Below, in pieces: positions 3,024 through 13,776 of a DNA stretch of 64,000 bases (positions within the stretch are counted from its first letter, which is position 1; every line of letters begins with the position of its first letter). The notes beneath the pieces are model-generated. The model worked only from the letters and a program-made list of their open reading frames with translations. It was not told the origin of the DNA and searched no databases. A program made the translations under genes and the position numbers. Source of the DNA: an uncultured Prolixibacteraceae bacterium (GTDB taxonomy: Bacteria; Bacteroidota; Bacteroidia; Bacteroidales; FEN-979); assembly GCA_964449285.1 (NCBI GenBank), contig CAYUZX010000011.1, positions 612 through 64,611 of the forward strand, given 5' to 3'.

Positions 3024-3415
3024 TGACCCCTCCCCGGCCCTCCCCTTGAAGGGGAGGGAGACCTGATTCCGACAGTTATTGTCCGTTTCGATTTTTCAAC
3101 CTTTGTTGAATCTCCTTCCGGATGCATTGCATTACTCTTCCAAAGTGGTTTTTAATTTCTTCATTTGTGAATCGTATGACTTTTATATCAAACCGATCCA
3201 ATTCTGCTGTGCGGTTCTCATCATGTTCTTTTTGCTCAGGCCGGTCATGATAAAGGCCATCAACTTCAATAACCAGTCGGGCTTGCATTAAAAAAATACG
3301 ATGGTTCTCTTGTCTTTTTCAGATAAGTCATTATATAAAGTTTAAATGAAACATCACTATTATCTACCCGACTATCATCTCCCTCCCCTTCAAGGGGAGG
3401 GCCGGGGAGGGGTCA
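3024..3415. mobile_element. MITE-like cassette: 38-bp perfect terminal inverted repeats enclosing a DUF559 gene fragment
   Basis: 3024-3061 TGACCCCTCCCCGGCCCTCCCCTTGAAGGGGAGGGAGA is the exact reverse complement of 3378-3415. Each arm is itself a hairpin (CCCTCCCCTT-G-AAGGGGAGGG). Confidence 0.55.
3076..3288 (-). pseudogene. DUF559 (Vsr-like endonuclease fold) C-terminal fragment
   Basis: ARLVIEVDGLYHDRPEQKEHDENRTAELDRFDIKVIRFTNEEI matches the C-terminal half of DUF559 proteins. A TAA lies immediately upstream of the ATG, and no N-terminal half is found in any frame of 3289-3377. Confidence 0.6.
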
Positions 3416-3609: not shown

Positions 3610-4764
3610 ATGACCTATATCAGACGTGAAATGGAAGCGGAATGCCGTTCGATGATAAATCAGTATCCGGTTGTTACTCTTATAGGCCCAAGACAATCCG
3701 GAAAAAAAACACTTGTGAGGCACCTTTTCCCCGACCTTCCATATTATAGTTTTGAGAACCCTGATGTCAGAATGTTGGTTCAACAAGATCCGAGAGGATT
3801 TCTTCTTGAGATTCCCCGTGGAGCGATCCTTGATGAAATACAGCATGTTCCTGAACTACCATCATATCTTCAGCAGGTTGCTGATGAAAAAAAGGGGAAG
3901 GTGAAATTCATCCTTACCGGTAGTAGTCATTTTATGATCATGGAGAAGGTAACTCAATCGCTCGCAGGAAGAACAGCCGTCCTGAAATTGCTTCCATTAT
4001 CATTTGGCGAACTTGGTAAGCGAACTCGCATAGACACAGACAGGCTTCTGTTTGATGGTTTTTTCCCAGTTATCTGGGCTGAGAAGAGGGATCCCTACAA
4101 AACATACAGGAACTATTATGAAACATATCTTCAAAAGGATGTAAGGAGGCTAATTCATTTAAAAGACCAGCATCTGTTCCAGAAATTCATTGGGATTTGT
4201 GCAGGAAGGATCGGGAGCCTATTTAACGCTAGTGCGGTAGCGAGTGAGATAGGCGTTTCGGTTCCGACTGTTAAATCCTGGCTTTCTGTATTGGAGGCTT
4301 CTTTTGTGGTATTCATGCTTCAGCCATGGCACGAAAATGTCACATCAAGGTTAATTAAAACACCAAAACTCTATTTCTGTGACACCGGCCTTGCTGCTTA
4401 TTTGCTGGGGATTGAAAAGCAAGAGCAAATGAAACGTGATCCTTTACGCGGAGTGTTGTTTGAGAATATGGTAGTTGTTGAGTTGATCAAGCGTCGGTAC
4501 AATCGGGGCGCTGATAATCCGTTGTTTTTCTACCGTGATAACCATCAAAATGAAATTGATTTGGTCGTTCGTGATGGCCAGGATGTCATCTGCATTGAGA
4601 TCAAATCTGCCGCCACGTTTCATTCCGACTTTCTCCGAACCCTGGATAAAGCCGGAAAACTGTTGAACAGATCTGTAAGCAGGAAAATGATTGTTTACGA
4701 TGGAGAAATTGAGCGAGGTGGGGAAACAGAGATCGTGAATGTGAGGAATATGAGGGTTTTCTGA
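3610..4764 (+). CDS. AAA+ ATPase with DUF4143 domain (COG1373-type)
   Basis: Walker A GPRQSGKKTL, Walker B AILDEIQ, then LTGSS...SLAGR and a C-terminal DUF4143-like region. Length and order are typical of the family. Confidence 0.85.
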   Translation: MTYIRREMEAECRSMINQYPVVTLIGPRQSGKKTLVRHLFPDLPYYSFENPDVRMLVQQDPRGFLLEIPRGAILDEIQHVPELPSYLQQVADEKKGKVKFILTGSSHFMIMEKVTQSLAGRTAVLKLLPLSFGELGKRTRIDTDRLLFDGFFPVIWAEKRDPYKTYRNYYETYLQKDVRRLIHLKDQHLFQKFIGICAGRIGSLFNASAVASEIGVSVPTVKSWLSVLEASFVVFMLQPWHENVTSRLIKTPKLYFCDTGLAAYLLGIEKQEQMKRDPLRGVLFENMVVVELIKRRYNRGADNPLFFYRDNHQNEIDLVVRDGQDVICIEIKSAATFHSDFLRTLDKAGKLLNRSVSRKMIVYDGEIERGGETEIVNVRNMRVF

Positions 4765-5184: not shown

Positions 5185-7089
5185 GTGAATCGCTGCTTCT
5201 GTTGTTTGTCTATCCTGACTCTCTCTCTCGTTCTGTGCTTCTCCTGTAACAGGCCGGCGGAGCTGCCTTACGCTAAACTTGATCCTTCCCGGGAAGCTGT
5301 TCTGAGAGATTCGATCAGAACGCTGGATTCGCTGGTCACCGTTTACAAAATTCGAAATCCCCGTCTTGCTAAGAACCATGCATATGATGCATTATCGTTA
5401 GCAATTAAGAGCAATGATCCATTATTGCTTGCCAGAGCGTATAGACTGGTCGGATATTCCATGATCAACACAAACGAGGATTCCAGTTTTATCTATTACA
5501 ACAGAGGGTTACAGATTGCAGACTCATTTGACCTTGTTGATGAAAAATCCCATCTCTACTATAATGTGGCTGTCGTTTATCAGGAAGCTCAGGATTACCA
5601 GACAGCCTTATCGTTTTTTGATTCCGCCAGAAGGATGTTTGCAAAAAATGGGGATTTCGCGAATTTATCAAGCGCCTATTGTGCTATTGCAAACATTAAG
5701 CACGATTTATTTGATTTTACAGGGGCCCGGCAAGCTTATGATACGGCATTATCCATTGCAGTCGACAACGGTTTTAGTAAACAAAAAGGAGTCGCCCTTG
5801 CGAACCTGATTAAATATGTGGAAAACAATGATACAGTAATCCGGATGCAAAAAGAGGCGATCAATTGCCTTGAAAAATCCAGCGGAAATGAAGAAGAAAT
5901 AGCTACCGTCCTGATGAACATAGGGAATTACTTTACTAACCCGGATTCAGCTCTTGATTATTATCTGGAAGCCATCACCCTTGGAGAAACCTATTTTCTG
6001 AATGAAGTGATGATTGGTGTATATAACAACATGGCATATAGCTTTCTGGAAAAAGGTGACGTTGTACAAGCTGAAGGATGCCTGAAAGATCATGCCATTC
6101 CTCTTGCACAAGCAGATTCCAATTTCGATTGGCTCTCTACACTTTATGATTCTTATGCGGATGTATTCGTTGCCAAAGGGAAATTCAAGGATGCTTTCCT
6201 TTATGAGCGAAAAGCCCTGGAGGCAAAAGCGGAATTTGATATCAGGAGGGCAGCCGGACAGGTCCGTTTGCTTGCCGCTCTTCTGGACCTAAAGAACAAG
6301 GAGTTGATGATCCAGGCAAAGAGTAAGCAGGTATTGGCAGAAGAGAACCGGAGCAAACAGATCCTCCTTTGGTTGATCATCGCTATTGTGGTATCCATTG
6401 GGCTGGGAGTCCTGGTTTTCATCCTTTCTCAACGTCACCGGCTAAAAATGCAACGACAGAAACTGGATTCGGCGACCCGCATTCTCCGGATGGAGGAGCA
6501 GGAGAAGGAGCGGGTTGGAAGGGAGTTGCATGACCTGACCGGACAGGTGATCCTGGGAATTGCCGGGGAGCTAGACCAGGCCAGGTTTTCCGATCCGGTG
6601 CAACAGGAGCAGTTGCAGAAACGCGTTCGCGAGATTGGAAACGGGATCAGGGAGATCTCTCACCGGATGGCAAAACCGGGTATGCATCACCTTTCATTTC
6701 AAGAACTGGTTGCCGATTTGTGCGAGAGTTACCGAAAATCGCTGGGAATGAACATTGGATTAAAAATACACTCGGATTTACCCGACATACCATACGAAAC
6801 AGCCATGCATCTCTACCGGGTTATCCAGGAGTTACTCACCAATGCCGGGAAATATGCCAGAGAATACGTTGTGGCTCTTACAGTAAACTACGAGGGAAAG
6901 ATGCTGGAGATCTTCTATTCTGATGAGGGTCCGGGATTTGATCCTGCGCTTTCAGTGAACAAGGGAATGGGATTATCCATTATCTTTGAGCGGATCAAAC
7001 TTATTGATGGGGATGCAAGCCTTGATTCAAGTCCCGGTGTTGGTACCTTCTGGGAAATAAAGGTGCCTATCAATCATACAACCAAATGA
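5185..7089 (+). CDS. Sensor histidine kinase, TPR-repeat sensor, one TM, HisKA_3 (NarX/DegS-type) + HATPase_c
   Basis: GTG start. Signal/lipobox-like N-terminus. TPR-like repeats in the N-terminal ~380 aa. TM segment ILLWLIIAIVVSIGLGVLVFIL. H-box ERVGRELHDLTGQ, N-box ELLTNAGKYA, DEGPGF, GMGLSII. Confidence 0.9.
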   Translation: MNRCFCCLSILTLSLVLCFSCNRPAELPYAKLDPSREAVLRDSIRTLDSLVTVYKIRNPRLAKNHAYDALSLAIKSNDPLLLARAYRLVGYSMINTNEDSSFIYYNRGLQIADSFDLVDEKSHLYYNVAVVYQEAQDYQTALSFFDSARRMFAKNGDFANLSSAYCAIANIKHDLFDFTGARQAYDTALSIAVDNGFSKQKGVALANLIKYVENNDTVIRMQKEAINCLEKSSGNEEEIATVLMNIGNYFTNPDSALDYYLEAITLGETYFLNEVMIGVYNNMAYSFLEKGDVVQAEGCLKDHAIPLAQADSNFDWLSTLYDSYADVFVAKGKFKDAFLYERKALEAKAEFDIRRAAGQVRLLAALLDLKNKELMIQAKSKQVLAEENRSKQILLWLIIAIVVSIGLGVLVFILSQRHRLKMQRQKLDSATRILRMEEQEKERVGRELHDLTGQVILGIAGELDQARFSDPVQQEQLQKRVREIGNGIREISHRMAKPGMHHLSFQELVADLCESYRKSLGMNIGLKIHSDLPDIPYETAMHLYRVIQELLTNAGKYAREYVVALTVNYEGKMLEIFYSDEGPGFDPALSVNKGMGLSIIFERIKLIDGDASLDSSPGVGTFWEIKVPINHTTK

Positions 7090-7105: not shown

Positions 7106-7738
7106 ATGATCAGGATTTTTGTTATCGAAGGCCATGCGGTTACCTCTTCGGGAATTCGGAATTTTTTCAGGGCATCACGGGATGGCATGGCCGTTACCGG
7201 GTGTGTCACGCGGGTTGATGAAGCCCTGGAGAAAGCAGATCCTTCCCAAACCGACCTCTTCTTACTCGACCTTTGGATCCACTCCACAAACCCTTTAGAG
7301 AACCTTCGCCTACTGAAGGAAAAATTTCCCGGGATACCGGTGGTTATTTTTACATCTGAAGAGTCCCCAATCTGGCAGCAGAAGATGATGGAGGCGGGGG
7401 CCATGGGATACCTGGTAAAGACCGCCTCAAGAATCGAAATCAGATCCGCATTGGAACACATCATGCAAGGACAGGCCGTTTTCTCTGTCTCTATCGATAC
7501 TTTCGATAAAAACAGGGGATTCACATCCACCTCCATGGGGATTGCCGGCACGCTTACAGAGCACCAACACAAACTTCTTACCCTGCTTGCCAATGGTTTA
7601 CCGCAGCGTGAAATGGCATCAAAACTTGGAATTACCACCTCTACGGTGGAGAAAAGTTTCAAATACCTGCGACAGAAATTTGAGGTTAAGACCAATGCGG
7701 AACTGATCAGATGGGTCACAGCAAACCGGCTGATCTGA
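7106..7738 (+). CDS. Response regulator, receiver + LuxR/NarL-type HTH
   Basis: Receiver with phosphoacceptor context LFLLDLWI, FTSE and LVK. The acidic pair reads E-G (VIEGH) rather than D-D. C-terminal HTH LPQREMASKLGITTSTVEKSFKYLRQKF. Confidence 0.85.
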   Translation: MIRIFVIEGHAVTSSGIRNFFRASRDGMAVTGCVTRVDEALEKADPSQTDLFLLDLWIHSTNPLENLRLLKEKFPGIPVVIFTSEESPIWQQKMMEAGAMGYLVKTASRIEIRSALEHIMQGQAVFSVSIDTFDKNRGFTSTSMGIAGTLTEHQHKLLTLLANGLPQREMASKLGITTSTVEKSFKYLRQKFEVKTNAELIRWVTANRLI

Positions 7739-7807
7739 TCCTTTCAGATACCTGATTGGTTCATTCTATCCTTCCCTTTTTTATTTTCTAAAAGAGTCGT
7801 TTCACTA

Positions 7808-7959
7808 AAAATCCGTCGTTTTTTGATTTTAGGTGACGTACAGATTGCACGCCATTATTTTTTGAATTTATATTGATAACCAGAATGTTACTCTTCTTCA
7901 GGGCTATTTTAGCCTGCGGATTTCCGCAGGTGCAATTTACGGTTTTCCGCAATTGACAA
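7808..7959 (+). repeat. Copy 1 of a ~150-nt intergenic hairpin-plus-operator cassette
   Basis: Colinear with 8691-8841. Shared blocks: AAATCCGTCGTTTTTTGATTTT, CAGATTGCACGCCA, TTTTTTGAATT, CTGCGGATTTCCGCAGGT.CAATTTACGG.TTTCCGCAATTGACAA. Confidence 0.85.
7914..7929. promoter_or_regulatory. Perfect palindrome CTGCGGA-TT-TCCGCAG plus a downstream half-site TTCCGCA; candidate operator
   Basis: Read directly. Lies ~95 nt upstream of the ATG at 8023 and immediately downstream of a LuxR-type regulator gene. Confidence 0.45.
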
Positions 7960-8022
7960 ATCATTCCTTCCTCTTTAGATTTACCCTGTCAGAAATATAG
8001 TTTTCAATTAAACAAATTTACC

Positions 8023-8466
8023 ATGAGAACCATTTCATTGTTTTTATTCCTGGCAATCATTTTTGCCGGGGAATCAGTCAAAGCCCAGTATCCTATCCCC
8101 TCTTATAATGTCGCCATCAATTATGCAGCGACGTTTCAGGAAATAGGATCCCCAATAAGTGAGTTTAAAGCTTCAAAGGGCAAGCGGATAGCCAACGTAA
8201 AACTTAAAGGATCTGATAGCCAGTCATTTTGTTCTGCGAGAGTTTGGCTATATAGTATGGATCAAGAAATTATGCTTGGACCCTATTCAATGATGTGCGA
8301 AGATCTCCTTTCTGTTGAAATAGATGACCGCGCATGGGGAGTCATGGTTCAATCAGACGATCACGTATATGTGGATGTATGGATCGAAGATGGGAGTCCC
8401 TTGACAGATGGCAAAGTGGATGCTATGGATACTGGACAGGTGTTGATGAAAGAAACCCTGAAGTAG
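8023..8466 (+). CDS. Small secreted protein (147 aa), unknown function
   Basis: Signal peptide MRTISLFLFLAIIFAGESVKAQ. Preceded by cassette copy 1 and followed by a decayed T9SS CTD in the same frame. Confidence 0.55.
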   Translation: MRTISLFLFLAIIFAGESVKAQYPIPSYNVAINYAATFQEIGSPISEFKASKGKRIANVKLKGSDSQSFCSARVWLYSMDQEIMLGPYSMMCEDLLSVEIDDRAWGVMVQSDDHVYVDVWIEDGSPLTDGKVDAMDTGQVLMKETLK

Positions 8467-8640: not shown

Positions 8641-8714
8641 CGTTAGCAGTTTGTTTCGCCTGCGGCTCGTAAAAATTGCCTTGTAGATTCAAATCCGTCG
8701 TTTTTTGATTTTTA

Positions 8715-8745
8715 GTGGCGTGCAGATTGCACGCCACTTTTTTTT
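8715..8745 (+). terminator. Rho-independent terminator-like hairpin
   Basis: GTGGCGTGCA-GAT-TGCACGCCAC (perfect 10-bp stem) followed by eight T. Confidence 0.6.
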
Positions 8746-8795
8746 GAATTGAGTTTGATTATCAGCCCATTACTCTTTTTCAAAGCCATTTTACA

Positions 8796-8811
8796 CTGCG
8801 GATTTCCGCAG
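8796..8811. promoter_or_regulatory. Second copy of palindrome CTGCGGA-TT-TCCGCAG; candidate operator
   Basis: Identical 16-mer to 7914-7929, ~75 nt upstream of the ATG at 8886. Confidence 0.45.
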
Positions 8812-8885
8812 GTACAATTTACGGATTTCCGCAATTGACAAGCCATCCGGAATGTCGTAGTTTTATCGCCGAGATCATTGCACGG

Positions 8886-9227
8886 ATGAAAAAGAGTTTA
8901 GAGAGAACAGAACGACCAAAACGTGTCCACAAAATTCCCCGGATAGATAACCGGGATAAGTTGGAACCTCTCCACGTGAGGGACTGTCCATGGTGTCATC
9001 AGTACCATGTCTACATGGTCAGGGTTTCACGGGTTCCGGTTACCGGAAATACACCGGTAAACGAGATCCTGAAGTTCAACAGCAGGAACCAGCTGATCCG
9101 CTACTTCATATGCCCGAATACAGGGAACCGGTTCAGGGGAATCCTTACGCTGTTCCACTCTCCCCATGAGGTGATCCGAAATATCGAAGTGCTGTTTGTA
9201 ATCCGGTCCAAACGATACGCCTCATGA
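8886..9227 (+). CDS. Small basic protein with Cys/His zinc-ribbon-like motifs (113 aa)
   Basis: First ATG in the ORF (the track TTG at 8835 lies inside the repeat cassette). Motifs CPWCHQYH ... CPNTGNRF. The stop overlaps the next start (ATGA at 9224-9227). Confidence 0.55.
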   Translation: MKKSLERTERPKRVHKIPRIDNRDKLEPLHVRDCPWCHQYHVYMVRVSRVPVTGNTPVNEILKFNSRNQLIRYFICPNTGNRFRGILTLFHSPHEVIRNIEVLFVIRSKRYAS

Positions 9228-10576
9228 CCCACAGGAAGTTCTACGATATCCACTTTCATGCGATGGACTTGAGTCATGCCAACCTTATGGCTTTTTTGCT
9301 ACGGAAGGACCTGATTACGAAGGAGACCATTCGCAATTTTTCCAGGCAGATGAAGTGGTGGATGAAGCTGATCCCGCTGGGAGCGATCGATATGGCCCCT
9401 GGATTGATCGTCAGAAAGTTACGGGAGTTTTTGGACGGACCTTCGAAGGCGAAGAACCTGCTCTCGTTCATGGAGAACTCGATCCGCTTCGATTTCCTTA
9501 TCGTGGAGCATTTCCTGAGGCACGGAGGAACCGGAGAGCCTGCATTTGTGAACAGGGAGAATATGTTTATGATCGATGAGATCCTGTACAACAAAATTGT
9601 TCTCTGCCCGCTGATCATCGACTTTGGCTTCAGGAATATTAAACAGAAAGGGATCTTTTACAACCTGCCGCCCAACAAGTCGGTGATCGACCAGGCAGCC
9701 GATGTGCTGACAGCCATCTCTCACTACCTCAAATACGACCTGGCGCCCTCGGTGCAGTATCCCGACCGTCTTGAAGTAACCCCTTCGGGGGGATACAAGA
9801 AGGGGAAGCTCTTTGAGATCTATCCTTTTCTGGGGATCAATCCCAGGAACGATTACAGCCTGGATGCCATTAAGCGGATCTTTGAAAAATACTTTTCCGG
9901 TTTCCTGCACGATACGCCGGTAAAGCGCAAGGAGTGGCTTCTGGAGAAGATGGGAACCTATACCGGGACCTTTGAAGGGGTGGACCTGAATTACCTCTTC
10001 GCCGGGATCAAGTTTTACCCGCCCCTGGGATTTGATCCCTGGCCCGAGAATGATCTGGCCGAGTTGAAGAAGATTTGTATCATATATGAAGAGTGTATCA
10101 AGCGACGGATTCCGGTCACGACGCATTGCAGCAACGGTGGATTTGTCACCGATTCTGATGCCGAACGATACACCAATCCGGCCAAACAATGGCGGAAGGC
10201 GCTCAAAACCTATCCGGAACTAAAGCTCAACTTTGCCCATTTCGGGGACCGGAGCGATCACAGGACAGACTGGCGTGACCAGATCATTGATTATATGTTG
10301 GATAAAGACTATCCGGATATCTATGCCGACTTCTCCTGTCGTGGTTTAAAAACAAAACGTGGAGAACCTGATTTTTACAAACAGATCAATCTACTGGTCA
10401 GCACCTATGGAAGTAAAATTTCGGAGCGGATGCTCTTTGGCTCCGATTTCATGATCAATCTACTCTGGACCACCTCGTACAACCGGTACCTGGAGAATTT
10501 CAAAGCCACTAGGGCCTTGAAAGGAAACAAGGAACTGTTCTGTACGAAGAACCCGGAGAGATTTCTATTTGGATAA
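9224..10576 (+). CDS. Metal-dependent hydrolase of the amidohydrolase/TIM-barrel superfamily (450 aa), subfamily unrecognised
   Basis: N-terminal DIHFH (HxH), later TTHCSNGG, NFAHFG and LFGSDF, in the order expected for amidohydrolase-fold metal ligands. There is a large insert between the first and later motifs. Confidence 0.65.
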   Translation: MTHRKFYDIHFHAMDLSHANLMAFLLRKDLITKETIRNFSRQMKWWMKLIPLGAIDMAPGLIVRKLREFLDGPSKAKNLLSFMENSIRFDFLIVEHFLRHGGTGEPAFVNRENMFMIDEILYNKIVLCPLIIDFGFRNIKQKGIFYNLPPNKSVIDQAADVLTAISHYLKYDLAPSVQYPDRLEVTPSGGYKKGKLFEIYPFLGINPRNDYSLDAIKRIFEKYFSGFLHDTPVKRKEWLLEKMGTYTGTFEGVDLNYLFAGIKFYPPLGFDPWPENDLAELKKICIIYEECIKRRIPVTTHCSNGGFVTDSDAERYTNPAKQWRKALKTYPELKLNFAHFGDRSDHRTDWRDQIIDYMLDKDYPDIYADFSCRGLKTKRGEPDFYKQINLLVSTYGSKISERMLFGSDFMINLLWTTSYNRYLENFKATRALKGNKELFCTKNPERFLFG

Positions 10577-10615
10577 CCATAACTCGAAAACAAGTCAATC
10601 ACTAAACGAAGCAAC

Positions 10616-10909
10616 ATGACACAGAAAGTACAAAATGTAAACGGGATAGCGGCAGAGCCCAACGGATGCAGGAGCTGGTTGGAGCACTGGCAGAATGTTA
10701 CCGGAGAGCAGCCGGGAGTATGTGCCGAGGTGAAATGCGGCAAGCTGGCTTCGGAAGGGGCGCTCGTCCAGAAAGCCGGAAACCACAACGAAGCGTGGTA
10801 CGTCGTGCCCCTCTGTCCGAAACACAATGCTATTCGCGGAGGCAGCCTGGAGCTGGTGGGATACATCCCATTGGTACCGGCAAGCGGGGAGAAGGTGGGT
10901 GAAACATAA
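10616..10909 (+). CDS. Cys-rich 97-aa protein with His-Me-finger-like signature
   Basis: C-x-SWLEHW ... C-x4-C ... GALV ... WYVVPLCPKHN. No signal peptide. Lies 39 nt after the hydrolase and 11 nt before the DNase gene. Confidence 0.5.
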   Translation: MTQKVQNVNGIAAEPNGCRSWLEHWQNVTGEQPGVCAEVKCGKLASEGALVQKAGNHNEAWYVVPLCPKHNAIRGGSLELVGYIPLVPASGEKVGET

Positions 10910-10920
10910 AACCCAAAATT

Positions 10921-11775
10921 ATGTCAACGTTCAAAAGAGTCTCATGGCTACTGCTCTTCCTGATCCCTACAGAGTTCAGCGGCTATACGCAGTGTGTCAA
11001 TCCAATCCTTCGAATTTGCACCTTCAACATCCAGAACTTTGGCAAGACCAAGTTGAATGATCCGAAACGGATTGCCATCCTGGCGGGAATCATCCGAAAG
11101 TATGATATCGTGGCGATCCAGGAGATCTCAGACAAAACGAATACGGTGCCGGGAAAGTTTCTCGACATCATCAACGATAACCACCGGTATGGGTATGCTT
11201 ATACCTGTAGCGTTCGTACGGGCCAGCAGTTCGACGATCGGTCCTATCAGGAGCAGTATGCCTTTTACTTCGATACGTGCAAAGTCACCCTGCTTGGTCA
11301 ACCGGTGGTATTCCCCGATTCGGCAGGCGACGACTTTGTGCGGGAGCCCTACCTGGCGCACTTCAGCGCCAGGAGGGGCTCTTTCTCTTTTGTACTGGCA
11401 ACCATCCACACGGCGCCCGATCAGGCGCTACATGAAATCGGAAAGCTGCATGACGTGGTTCAATGGGCCAGGCAATACTTCACGGGAGAGGAAGAAGTGA
11501 TTGTACTTGGCGACTTCAATGCTTCATGCAGTTACGCAACCCCAGAAGAGTTGAACCAACTCCTCTTCCGTGGCGATGACTATACCTGGATCATTCCCGA
11601 TACCGCAAAAACGAACCTGGCAATCCGCACCAACTGTGCATACGACCGTTTTGTTGTGACACCTACCGTGTTGCCCTATTACACGGGCGCCTGGCATGTT
11701 GACCGGTCGTTTGACTCGAGAAGTATCTCGGATCATTATCCGGTGTGGGTGGAGTTTAGGATAAGAGATGAGTAG
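10921..11775 (+). CDS. Exported DNase I-family nuclease (endonuclease/exonuclease/phosphatase fold)
   Basis: Signal peptide. Blocks ICTFNIQNFGKTK, YDIVAIQEI, REP, GDFNASCSY, WIIPD, TNCAYDRFVV and ISDHYPVWV run colinear with mammalian DNase I as I recall it. Confidence 0.85.
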   Translation: MSTFKRVSWLLLFLIPTEFSGYTQCVNPILRICTFNIQNFGKTKLNDPKRIAILAGIIRKYDIVAIQEISDKTNTVPGKFLDIINDNHRYGYAYTCSVRTGQQFDDRSYQEQYAFYFDTCKVTLLGQPVVFPDSAGDDFVREPYLAHFSARRGSFSFVLATIHTAPDQALHEIGKLHDVVQWARQYFTGEEEVIVLGDFNASCSYATPEELNQLLFRGDDYTWIIPDTAKTNLAIRTNCAYDRFVVTPTVLPYYTGAWHVDRSFDSRSISDHYPVWVEFRIRDE

Positions 11776-11857: not shown

Positions 11858-12427
11858 ATGAAAACAAAAACTTTTTTATTAGGAATTATTAGCCTACTTA
11901 TTTCAAGTGTCGTTTTTTCTCAAGAAAAAACTGAAACATATCCACTTGATTTAATGATCCAAGTCATTAACAATAGTTTGGATAAAGCAAATAAAAGATT
12001 GGATTCTGTGCATATTCAAATTCAGCACGCTGAAATTACCCTTCAAACGCTTTTAGACAAGTCTGGTGGTGGTGGATTTAAAATATTTGTTAAAGCAGAA
12101 AAAAAATGGGAACTTGAAAAAGCCAGTACGCTCACTTTTACTTTTGAAAAAATTGAATCACGACCCGAGCCGAATTATAAAAGCTTGAATAAGGATATTT
12201 TTGAAAAAAACTTGATAGAAGCAATTGTAGATGCGGCCCATCAATGGAAAAATACTACAAACATCGTAAATGGATTATCAAAGAAAAATTTTAATGTTGA
12301 AATCTCCTTTTCAGTTAAAAAAGATACTTCCATTGGAGTAGAATTTGAAATTTGGGGTGTCGGAGTAGATGTTACAGGTAACTTTGAAAATCAGGCCGTA
12401 CATAAGGTATCTCTTACTTTTAAGTAA
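11858..12427 (+). CDS. Secreted protein with two tandem small beta-rich repeats (possibly trypco2-like)
   Basis: Signal peptide MKTKTFLLGIISLLISSVVFSQ. Repeat 1 is HIQIQHAEITLQ..GGGGFKIFVKAE...STLTFTF. Repeat 2 is FNVEISFSV...GVEFEIWGVGVD...HKVSLTF. Confidence 0.55.
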   Translation: MKTKTFLLGIISLLISSVVFSQEKTETYPLDLMIQVINNSLDKANKRLDSVHIQIQHAEITLQTLLDKSGGGGFKIFVKAEKKWELEKASTLTFTFEKIESRPEPNYKSLNKDIFEKNLIEAIVDAAHQWKNTTNIVNGLSKKNFNVEISFSVKKDTSIGVEFEIWGVGVDVTGNFENQAVHKVSLTFK

Positions 12428-12760
12428 ATCGATGGAAAGAGACAAGAAGAACAATGCATGAAGTTCACGGAAAACATACTCACATTTACAGGCTAGAAAG
12501 TAAGCTAAATCAAACAATTTATTACACGTACCGATCAGCCTATACAAGATCAAATGAAAGGAGGTCAAAAACCTAACAAACTGATTTTGAATAGTTATTA
12601 TTGGTATAAGTTCGATTTTTACTCTTAGCCGGTTGAAAATATTTTATTGATCACTTGTACATATAATCTATATTTCTATACTTTTATTGCTCAATTTCCG
12701 AATATGACGGTTAATACCCTCTCGCACCGGGAAACGTTAAACCAGTTAAACATTCCTATC

Positions 12761-13204
12761 ATGAGATTGATCAATCACGCCAGAGAAAGTAAAAAAATGT
12801 ACCTCCTTTTTGTATTCGTTGGATTGAATTGTATTTTTCAACATCCTTGTTATTCACAACAGCTAAGTGAAGAGGGGAAATTCCCCATTCCAAAAGTAGT
12901 TTCGTTCAATCCGGATTCAAACCAATATCAATGTTTATTTGATGGAGAAAAAGACTCTGTTGTTTTTTATTCAGGAGTTGTGACCCTTGCTCCCAATGAA
13001 TCCGGAGAAATCCATAACACGGAAATGTATGAAGAGATGATCATTCCACTTGAAGGCGAAGGGCAATTGCAAATCCCAGATTATAAAAATCTTGATGTTA
13101 AATTTGGAACCATTGCGTTTGTTCCTCCGCATACTGAACATCATATGACAAATACCGTGAGTAAAAACTTAAAATATATTTATGTCGCCACAAAATCAAA
13201 ATAA
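12761..13204 (+). CDS. Cupin-domain protein with N-terminal signal
   Basis: GEIHNTEMYEEMIIPLEGEG ... FVPPHTEHHMTN resembles the two cupin motifs. The start is ambiguous (ATG 12761 or 12797). Confidence 0.6.
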   Translation: MRLINHARESKKMYLLFVFVGLNCIFQHPCYSQQLSEEGKFPIPKVVSFNPDSNQYQCLFDGEKDSVVFYSGVVTLAPNESGEIHNTEMYEEMIIPLEGEGQLQIPDYKNLDVKFGTIAFVPPHTEHHMTNTVSKNLKYIYVATKSK

Positions 13205-13221
13205 TATTCAAATCAATACAG

Positions 13222-13776
13222 ATGAAAGCAAGAGAAGAAAAAAATTGTACCAATTGTTCCTACTACATTGAAGACATTGATATTCAAAATCTTGACCCTG
13301 CGGACCAAATCAAATATGAAGAATTAGTTCGGTCCCTTGCTTCAGACGATATAGATATTGACCCGAAAGAACTGTTCCTTTTGTCTCATGGAATCAGAAA
13401 ATCGGTATGCATTGGAGGCTTGGTAAAACCCAATATTATTAAAGAGAATTGCAGATACCACGCTACCCTTCCAAATGAACTCAACAAGGATCAATTGCTC
13501 CAATCCTTTGTTTCTCAATGCAACAAAACCATGTCCACTAATCAATTAATTGCCATGATCTCAATAGCTCTTATTACTCTTCTCGCTACCTTGTTTGGTA
13601 TTTTCCAAACCACCCGGAATATGGAGTTGAAAGAGGAGATTGAAAATTATAAGAGCTCTGTCGAAATAAAAGATAATCAAATACGGAATCAACATATTTT
13701 GTTATCCCAGGATAGCACGAAAATTAAAGAATTACAGGATAGTACGATCATACTTAATCATCTTTTAAAGAAATAA
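13222..13776 (+). CDS. Hypothetical membrane-anchored coiled-coil protein
   Basis: N-terminal CTNC, one TM (LIAMISIALITLLATLFGIF), and a heptad-like C-terminus. No family recognised. Confidence 0.4.
   Translation: MKAREEKNCTNCSYYIEDIDIQNLDPADQIKYEELVRSLASDDIDIDPKELFLLSHGIRKSVCIGGLVKPNIIKENCRYHATLPNELNKDQLLQSFVSQCNKTMSTNQLIAMISIALITLLATLFGIFQTTRNMELKEEIENYKSSVEIKDNQIRNQHILLSQDSTKIKELQDSTIILNHLLKK

Follow-up and report, generated by a model that had tools for sequence, protein, structure and literature searches.

Within a 64,000-nucleotide (nt) stretch of contig CAYUZX010000011.1 from an uncultured Prolixibacteraceae bacterium, hereafter the window, we analysed four consecutive + strand genes that end with a homologue of DNase I. 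According to the list of open reading frames (ORFs), these are gene 1 (8886-9227; 113 amino acids (aa) from the ATG at 8886), gene 2 (9224-10576; 450 aa), gene 3 (10616-10909; 97 aa) and gene 4, the DNase I homologue (10921-11775; 284 aa). Genes 1 and 2 overlap by an ATGA at 9224-9227, and the next two junctions measure 39 nt and 11 nt; the tight operon described by a first-pass annotation of this DNA is thus recovered from both the ORF list and the raw sequence. The ORF of gene 1 could be extended upstream to a TTG at 8835. Since this TTG belongs to the TTGACA box of the promoter described below, and since homologues begin near the ATG, position 8886 is the likely start. A consensus scan of the + strand within 8886-11775 found no terminator-like site. 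The same strand, the short or overlapping junctions and the promoter and terminator scans fit a single co-transcribed operon; metatranscriptome contigs span none of its junctions. Our tentative reading, favoured here though we put it at somewhat less than an even chance, is that the locus belongs to an accessory regulon of a freshwater Bacteroidales bacterium under two-component control, whose clear output would be DNase I activity outside the cytoplasm. The GC content at third codon positions (GC3) supports this reading, being 0.60-0.65 in genes 1 to 4 versus 0.23 in the next downstream gene.

The operon is preceded by one copy of a 156-nt direct repeat (7809-7964 and 8691-8846, 84% identical, direct-repeat family D1). 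Copy 1 of this cassette lies ahead of the ORF of a 147-aa secreted protein and copy 2 ahead of gene 1, both on the + strand. In copy 1 (7809-7964) we found a hairpin-like stretch (7832-7856), the palindrome CTGCGGATTTCCGCAG (7914-7929), the dyad ACGGTTTTCCGC (7939-7950) and a TTGACA (7953-7958); a TAGATT box just outside the repeat (7976-7981) completes a promoter-like TTGACA-17-TAGATT match. Copy 2 (8691-8846) contains an 11-bp GC-rich hairpin with a T-run (8714-8738), CTGCGGATTTCCGCAG as a perfect palindrome (8796-8811), the dyad ACGGATTTCCGC (8821-8832) and a TTGACA (8835-8840), with a TAGTTT box 17 nt from the TTGACA and again just outside the repeat (8858-8863). Repeat alignment and terminator scan therefore both agree with the first-pass annotation, which had placed a cassette with hairpin and palindrome before the operon. 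Each cassette carries two CGGATTTCCGC dyads 23 bp apart, the proximal one abutting the TTGACA -35 box, and such a placement of dyads beside a -35 box would be typical of an activator.

Nothing else at the locus is as well conserved as the cassette, the adjoining proteins being only 33-77% identical. Indeed, the hairpin stem, both dyads, the TTGACA and a TAG.TTTAC box can be aligned between the two copies of the window, two copies in a related locus, L002, one locus termed L195 and, partly, L081. These conserved elements lie upstream of gene 1 in L002, in L195 and, for those present, in L081, and in L002 they are also found upstream of the gene of the 147-aa protein. Of 195 fetched loci, only those bearing the operon contain the 21-nt core ACGGNTTTCCGCNATTGACAA, which within the window is confined to the two cassette copies. 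An Rfam scan of cassette and operon gave no RNA family. As for the 5′ hairpin, in both window copies, in L002 and in L195 the sequence of the stem is kept and the loop varies (GATT, AAC, ATT); since this conservation of the stem exceeds what a plain terminator needs, the hairpin may be part of the regulatory element.

Just upstream of the cassettes, two + strand genes encode a sensor histidine kinase (5185-7089; Pfam TPR_12 2.9e-16, HATPase_c 1.6e-9, HisKA_3 8.5e-5) and a LuxR/GerE-type response regulator (7106-7738; Response_reg 6.9e-16, GerE 2.9e-8). The kinase starts with a signal or lipoprotein-like peptide (signal peptides were judged by eye and by hydropathy throughout), followed by TPR repeats, one transmembrane helix at a hydrophobic peak near residue 393, HisKA_3 and HATPase_c. 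The two genes are adjacent in the window, in L002, in L081-83 and in L001, the kinase homologues of these three sets of loci being neighbours of the operon, and they accompany the cassette in L002 and L081-83, where the regulator is 74% and 61% identical, respectively. The cassette is most likely the operator and promoter of this neighbouring regulator, and we infer that kinase and regulator control both cassette promoters. The locus is transcribed at a low level in lakes: in two lake metatranscriptomes we found short contigs on gene 2 (9532-9739 and 9959-10109) and gene 4 (11154-11350), as well as contigs on the kinase and regulator genes, whose depth is higher.

Gene 4 is the member of the operon with the clearest identity. 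Its residues 29-277 match DNase I structures in the PDB (9fju, 1atn and 1dnk; E 6e-40 to 2e-39), and bovine and human DNase I as well as DNase gamma align with it along the whole mature enzyme (E 6e-40 to 6e-35). Pfam assigns it to Exo_endo_phos (PF03372; 9.6e-16, 58.6 bits for a cut-off of 24.5). The motifs FNI, IQE, YQEQY, IHTAP, GDFNASC, NCAYDR and SDHYP are conserved in the alignment; we take them to carry the residues numbered N7, E39, E78, H134, D168/N170, D212 and D251/H252 in bovine DNase I. Both cysteines aligned with bovine C173 and C209, which form the essential disulfide, are also present. On every feature that could be tested, then, gene 4 has the sequence of an intact DNase I family member. 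Its first 29 residues are basic and hydrophobic, look like a signal peptide and stop at the point where the mature N-terminus of DNase I begins, so that the exported DNase I of the first-pass annotation stands as a prediction. Because the cysteines of the structural disulfide are kept, the protein is probably inactive, or unable to fold, in the cytoplasm.

Conservation of the operon among its relatives is mosaic. The related loci all come from metagenomes, several of them being short. Of 80 genome loci in which gene 2 has a homologue, only L002 (gene 2 76% identical) also has genes 1, 3 and 4, and its DNase (7704-8160) is a pseudogene that has lost the first 81 residues and, through an internal deletion, the GDFNA motif, and that carries a terminal frameshift. 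L195 has the cassette, gene 1 and gene 2 (77%); L194 has gene 2 (77%) followed by gene 3 (63%). The four independent metagenome contigs L081-84 present a fragmented kinase, the regulator, a partial cassette, gene 1, a remnant of gene 2, gene 3 and then unrelated genes, with no DNase. The remnant (L081:5826-5963, also in L082-L084) is a 45-aa ORF in which residues 1-23 run in frame into residues 425-450, and the histidine kinase next to it is broken up into three ORFs; genes 1 and 3 are intact. By its sequence, the locus is decaying in this lineage. In L094, a Crp-family regulator, gene 2 (73%), a 257-aa protein and an intact DNase I (72%) are found, genes 1 and 3 being absent; the 257-aa protein has no significant Pfam match, only sub-threshold matches to membrane-protein and CBS models. 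That the pair of genes 2 and 4 recurs there under a different regulator supports the regulon that we favour.

Two sub-associations are thus seen to recur: genes 1-2-3 with the cassette, in L002, L194 and L195 with remnants in L081-84, and gene 2 with the DNase; still, each gene can be lost alone. With a single full set among 80 loci, and a dead DNase in it, the idea of one four-component system is not supported. Because relatives keep or lose the genes separately, what the loci describe is a lineage-specific set of co-regulated genes and not a new four-part system.

The same distribution suggests an alternative, in which genes 1-2-3 are a self-contained module unrelated to DNA, acting for instance on a small-molecule or envelope-derived amide, and the DNase I is a late passenger on their promoter. 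Indeed, L002 and L194/L195 retain the gene 1-2-3 order, the ATGA coupling and the cassette, with remnants in L081-84, and the DNase is decayed or absent in these loci. However, L094, which lacks genes 1 and 3, still pairs gene 2 with the DNase, both diverged to a matching degree; genes 1 to 4 share a common composition, and gene 2 has been deleted in L081-84 with genes 1 and 3 retained, so that even the core is not obligate. The surroundings of gene-2 homologues, considered below, also bear on this alternative.

A search with gene 2 recovered 866 homologues of about 445 aa, which are spread over Bacteroidales, Deltaproteobacteria, Nitrospirota, Bacillota, Spirochaetota and further groups. Pfam recognises Amidohydro_2 (PF04909) in residues 257-448 only (E=2.8e-12, 47.4 bits for a cut-off of 26.4). 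An AlphaFold2 (AF2) model built from a 60-sequence alignment (predicted local distance difference test (pLDDT) 84, predicted template-modelling score (pTM) 0.86) shows an eight-stranded barrel, with predicted strands at residues 4-11, 120-130, 197-204, 261-264, 298-303, 335-342, 366-371 and 403-406. Six residues are invariant in the 60 homologues: H10 and H12 on strand 1, K263 on predicted strand 4, H301 on strand 5, H339 on strand 6 and D408 on strand 8. The best PDB matches of the model in Foldseek are dihydroorotase, LigY and ACMSD (E~1e-5, template-modelling (TM) score 0.3-0.45, 12-16% identity, probability 1.0), and neither a single-sequence nor a 60-sequence profile search found a relative of gene 2 in the PDB. 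Likewise, we found no close tie in sequence or structure to ACMSD, LigI/LigY or IDCase that would allow a substrate to be transferred to gene 2. The model thus makes it a divergent TIM barrel of the amidohydrolase superfamily, as the first-pass annotation had proposed in assigning the fold without a characterised subfamily.

This invariant set of HxH, Lys, His, His and Asp corresponds to the ligands of binuclear enzymes that carry a carboxylated bridging lysine, such as dihydroorotase, hydantoinase and phosphotriesterase. Gene 2 is probably such a binuclear metal hydrolase with a bridging lysine, dihydroorotase-like in its ligands. Residues ~13-115 form a helical insert of about 100 residues after strand 1, modelled with low confidence; in the homologues P0100 and P0111, this insert contains strongly hydrophobic, transmembrane-like helices, which hints that the family is membrane-proximal.

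The first-pass annotation had asked whether homologues of gene 2 travel with the DNase or with gene 3. They show no consistent neighbours across phyla, and the relatives hold subsets of the four genes. In the wider family, 74 non-redundant neighbours matched 109 different Pfam families, none of which occurs in more than two of them. Two upstream contexts do recur. In 15 Bacteroidales genomes (L004-L031, for example L004:4269-7326), the gene-2 homologue (41-45% identical) comes directly after folP and a DisA_N-type diadenylate cyclase gene (cdaA), often with a gene for an 80-aa membrane protein in between, and at four other loci it follows a NupC-type nucleoside transporter. These contexts could reflect nucleotide-related chemistry; they could also be plain synteny, because they are confined to related Bacteroidales. 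A role of gene 2 as a cyclic di-AMP phosphodiesterase was considered and dropped for want of support, a literature search having yielded nothing. For the self-contained module with a passenger DNase, the adjacency of other gene-2 homologues to cdaA counts as a further point in favour, and so do the distant homologues in L030, L037 and L039 that lie just downstream of peptidoglycan hydrolase-like genes (read from the sequences by eye). On balance, we consider this alternative rather unlikely, though worth keeping in sight.

The partner of gene 2 in the coupled pair, gene 1, carries the motif CPxCH...CP...H. It is a rare protein, with two matches only among 5.8 billion proteins. Its homologues, found by tblastn in L002, L195 and L081-84, are 33-44% identical and keep C34, P35, C37, H38, H41, C76, P77 and H91, a pattern that fits a zinc-ribbon-like protein. 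The overlap that joins the two genes persists wherever both are present, including in L002, L195 and L081. The 147-aa secreted protein (ORF at 8023-8466, + strand) begins with a hydrophobic, signal-like segment, and a Pfam scan of it gave no match. It has homologues in L002 (49% identical) and in L001 and L193 (39%); in the latter two it lies directly upstream of gene 2, with, in L193, a C-terminal remnant of gene 1 as well and, in L001, a C25 peptidase downstream. The protein would be co-regulated with the operon through cassette copy 1.

Gene 3 belongs to a large family of small proteins with two putative zinc sites. A word-indexed search gave six relatives, and a profile search 1554 cluster representatives (50% identity clusters, E<=1e-3), mostly of 93-110 aa and typically ~95 aa, with the consensus MKVKNINGTS..C.CGSWL.HW...C....C...GAHVQK...WYIVPLC..HN...LVSAN..ETC. 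Among 135 relatives, site one is formed by C36 and C67, both invariant, C41 (Cys in 133) and position 70, always His or Cys; the ligands of site two, C16, C18, H24 and C95, show 94-98% conservation. At position 50, 69% of the relatives have His, in contrast to a Leu (L50) in the window copy, which also has N16 and G95 and so lacks two of the four ligands of site two; such changes are found in 3/135 and 1/135 sequences, respectively. In the clade of gene 3, the commonest His of the family is lost in 5/6 sequences. By these residues, the window copy is a degenerate member of its family. The PLCPKHN signature given by the first-pass annotation is present, but "Cys-rich" was generous for a protein with 4 Cys in 97 aa.

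Pfam, NCBIfam and PHROGs contain no model of this family, and NCBI and JGI name all its members "hypothetical protein". The AF2 model of gene 3 (pLDDT 85), in which the helix after the hairpin spans 4 residues only, has no Foldseek match at E<0.1 in PDB or BFVD. Several candidate assignments were set aside: C2H2 zinc-finger and SPT4 matches from a PDB sequence search, which were short and cysteine-driven; TT_ORF2-like Pfam matches in 26/36 relatives, which were weak (best E 0.0018), had the motif order reversed and were taken as compositional; and a beta-beta-alpha-metal nuclease of HNH or Ref type, given the Leu at the putative catalytic-His position and no HNH fold match. Pfam RecA_dep_nuc matches 4/36 members weakly (best E 0.0077). 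Most family members are encountered in phage-like or mobile settings: they occur in viral contigs at 18 loci, and their neighbourhoods are very variable, with integrases, LexA-like repressors, a pair of C5-methyltransferase and Vsr, insertion sequence (IS)-type transposases and terminase genes. Annotated phage and plasmid collections hold one unannotated or hypothetical relative each. As a separate observation, a convergent gene of 72-104 aa with an overlapping stop follows family members in 15/98 loci.

One of the options of the first-pass annotation was an exported nuclease whose inhibitor or maturation partners are cytoplasmic. In such a scheme, gene 3 would bind the DNase I and silence it ahead of export, in the manner of NuiA with NucA or barstar with barnase. 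Genes 3 and 4 are only 11 nt apart, and the loss of the commonest His in the clade, together with half a zinc site in the window copy, fits binding and not catalysis. Nevertheless, L094 has an intact DNase (72% identical) without gene 3, which weakens the option from one side; from the other, L081-84 have gene 3 without the DNase and L002 has it beside a dead DNase. Moreover, the roughly 1554 clusters of the gene-3 family are spread over diverse phage-like surroundings in which no nuclease partner recurs, and since the cysteines of its essential disulfide are retained, the DNase would probably show no activity in the cytoplasm in any case. An inhibitor therefore appears improbable, and of the three options put forward by the first-pass annotation, it is the use or degradation of DNA that stays plausible.

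The surroundings of the operon contain several further features. Downstream, a low-GC island (11858-13776; 31-35% GC and GC3 0.23-0.37, compared with 49-57% GC in the operon) encodes a signal-peptide protein with a C-terminal Trypco2 domain (E=2.4e-10), a Cupin_2 protein and a 184-aa transmembrane protein. Because none of its genes is found in related loci, the island is probably a separate acquisition. The Trypco2 gene was considered as a fifth member of the operon and rejected, being absent from all related loci and very different in composition. Upstream, the perfect 38-nt inverted repeat TGACCCCTCCCCGGCCCTCCCCTTGAAGGGGAGGGAGA (3024-3061 and 3378-3415) encloses 316 nt in which a DUF559 (Vsr-like) fragment of 70 aa is encoded on the minus strand; L002 has similar GGGAG-rich repeats upstream of its cassette, and the arrangement may represent a small mobile element or one of the repetitive extragenic palindromic (REP) type. 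An AAA_14/DUF4143 ATPase gene (3610-4764), with weak PD-(D/E)XK and NERD-like matches in its tail, is located upstream of the kinase. A similar AAA_14/DUF4143 gene also lies near a distant gene-3 homologue in the Myxococcota contig L085.

Such neighbours raise the question of whether the four genes, possibly with the downstream Trypco2 protein, might be a nucleic-acid-targeting conflict system or an anti-phage defence. What invites this idea is context: members of the gene-3 family are found in viral contigs and beside integrases, LexA-like repressors, transposases and a pair of methyltransferase and Vsr genes; an AAA_14/DUF4143 ATPase gene, a DUF559 fragment and a Trypco2-domain gene lie near the operon; and the gene-2 family is patchy across phyla. 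Yet the four proteins gave 0 matches at E<=1 in PADLOC-DB v2, which agrees with the statement of the first-pass annotation that no described system unites these genes, and NCBIfam and PHROGs scans returned nothing useful besides DNase-like matches. With its predicted signal peptide and its disulfide cysteines, the sole clear nuclease should work outside the cytoplasm, components are lost singly in relatives, and gene-2 homologues lie mostly among housekeeping genes. Finally, the Trypco2 gene, absent from every related locus, has 31% GC against 49-57% in the operon. With an exported nuclease and zero positive evidence, the conflict system suggested at first is very improbable.

Altogether, the accessory regulon with an exported DNase I as its output remains the reading we prefer, and we can propose the following sequence of events. 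The TPR-sensor kinase (5185-7089) would phosphorylate the LuxR-type regulator (7106-7738), which would then bind the two CGGATTTCCGC dyads in each of the two near-identical promoter cassettes. One cassette would drive the secreted 147-aa protein and the other would drive genes 1-4 as a single transcript. The gene 4 product would be exported by the Sec pathway and cut double-stranded DNA in the periplasm or beyond. The gene 2 product, a putative metal-dependent hydrolase, would stay in the cell, cytoplasmic or membrane-proximal, with gene 1 as a zinc-ribbon partner made in step with it. Gene 3 would be a zinc-finger protein of mobile-element origin that, because conserved residues are lost, is more likely to bind than to cut. 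Together, these steps would make the locus an inducible module that degrades DNA outside the cytoplasm, perhaps with a role in using or clearing DNA.

Several points weigh against this proposal. In L002, the DNase has decayed with genes 1-3 intact, which indicates a core that is independent of the DNase. Gene-2 homologues that are <=49% identical lie in other contexts, among unrelated housekeeping genes across phyla, or have folP-cdaA (15 loci) or NupC (4 loci) as upstream neighbours. The RNA contigs are fragmentary; they show transcription and cannot show one transcript. Finally, a Sec signal in a diderm bacterium ensures delivery to the periplasm only, and the 284-aa protein has no C-terminal domain of the type IX secretion system.

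A bolder version would make genes 1-2-3 an undescribed, signal-controlled module acting on a nucleic-acid-derived substrate released by the exported DNase I, through uptake, breakdown or sensing of fragments. We regard this as a long shot. If it were true, it would provide the first functions for an orphan amidohydrolase family and for a zinc-protein family of ~1500 clusters. If the regulon that we favour is right, the locus would be another route by which environmental Bacteroidota subject an exported DNase to sensory control, and it would be relevant to the turnover of extracellular DNA in lakes. Current ideas are not overturned by either, and the by-products of the analysis may outweigh the operon in usefulness. 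First, the sharply conserved operator-promoter cassette makes the TPR-kinase/LuxR regulon testable. Second, gene 2 reveals a widespread orphan amidohydrolase clade with a putative dihydroorotase-like ligand set. Third, gene 3 leads to a large family of ~95-aa proteins with two predicted zinc sites, linked to phages and mobile elements and absent from Pfam and NCBIfam.

Comparison with known systems places each protein differently. Gene 4 resembles vertebrate DNase I (1ATN, 1DNK, 9FJU) by its alignment over the full mature enzyme (E~1e-39), the catalytic Glu, His and Asp, the Asn and Asp of the metal sites and the two cysteines of the essential disulfide; it differs by being bacterial and encoded in an operon under a putative response-regulator promoter, and the C101-C104 loop is not conserved. 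Gene 2 shares with dihydroorotase (1J79), ACMSD and LigY the TIM barrel, the HxH of strand 1, the His of strands 5 and 6, the Asp of strand 8 and a score above the PF04909 cut-off, whereas only its C-terminal half fits the Pfam model, TM scores are 0.35-0.45 and the helical insert of ~100 residues sets it apart. Its invariant Lys on predicted strand 4 is like that of dihydroorotase and unlike ACMSD-type enzymes. Gene 3 recalls Anabaena NucA-NuiA and barnase-barstar, where a small cytoplasmic protein is encoded right beside an exported nuclease, but gene 3 and the DNase do not co-vary in relatives and the gene-3 family is not tied to nucleases. The motif order of this family (a Cys pair, G-A-H-V, then D..W..PLC..H-N) is also that of Ref-type HNH nucleases from phage P1; unlike these, gene 3 has no HNH fold match, and the putative catalytic His, present in 69% of the family, is Leu in the window.

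At the level of the whole locus, the closest precedents are the regulated extracellular nucleases that serve DNA nutrition or biofilm remodelling, Dns and Xds in Vibrio cholerae and EddB in Pseudomonas aeruginosa. As in Dns/Xds and EddA-EddB, a sensory regulator would govern the gene of a predicted secreted DNase, which would be expressed along with a second hydrolase. The families involved are different: the known nucleases belong to the endonuclease I, Xds and EddB families and their partner is a phosphatase, whereas the partners in the window are an amidohydrolase, a zinc ribbon and a zinc-finger protein. By analogy, the locus would work like other regulated secreted-nuclease loci, with different protein families.

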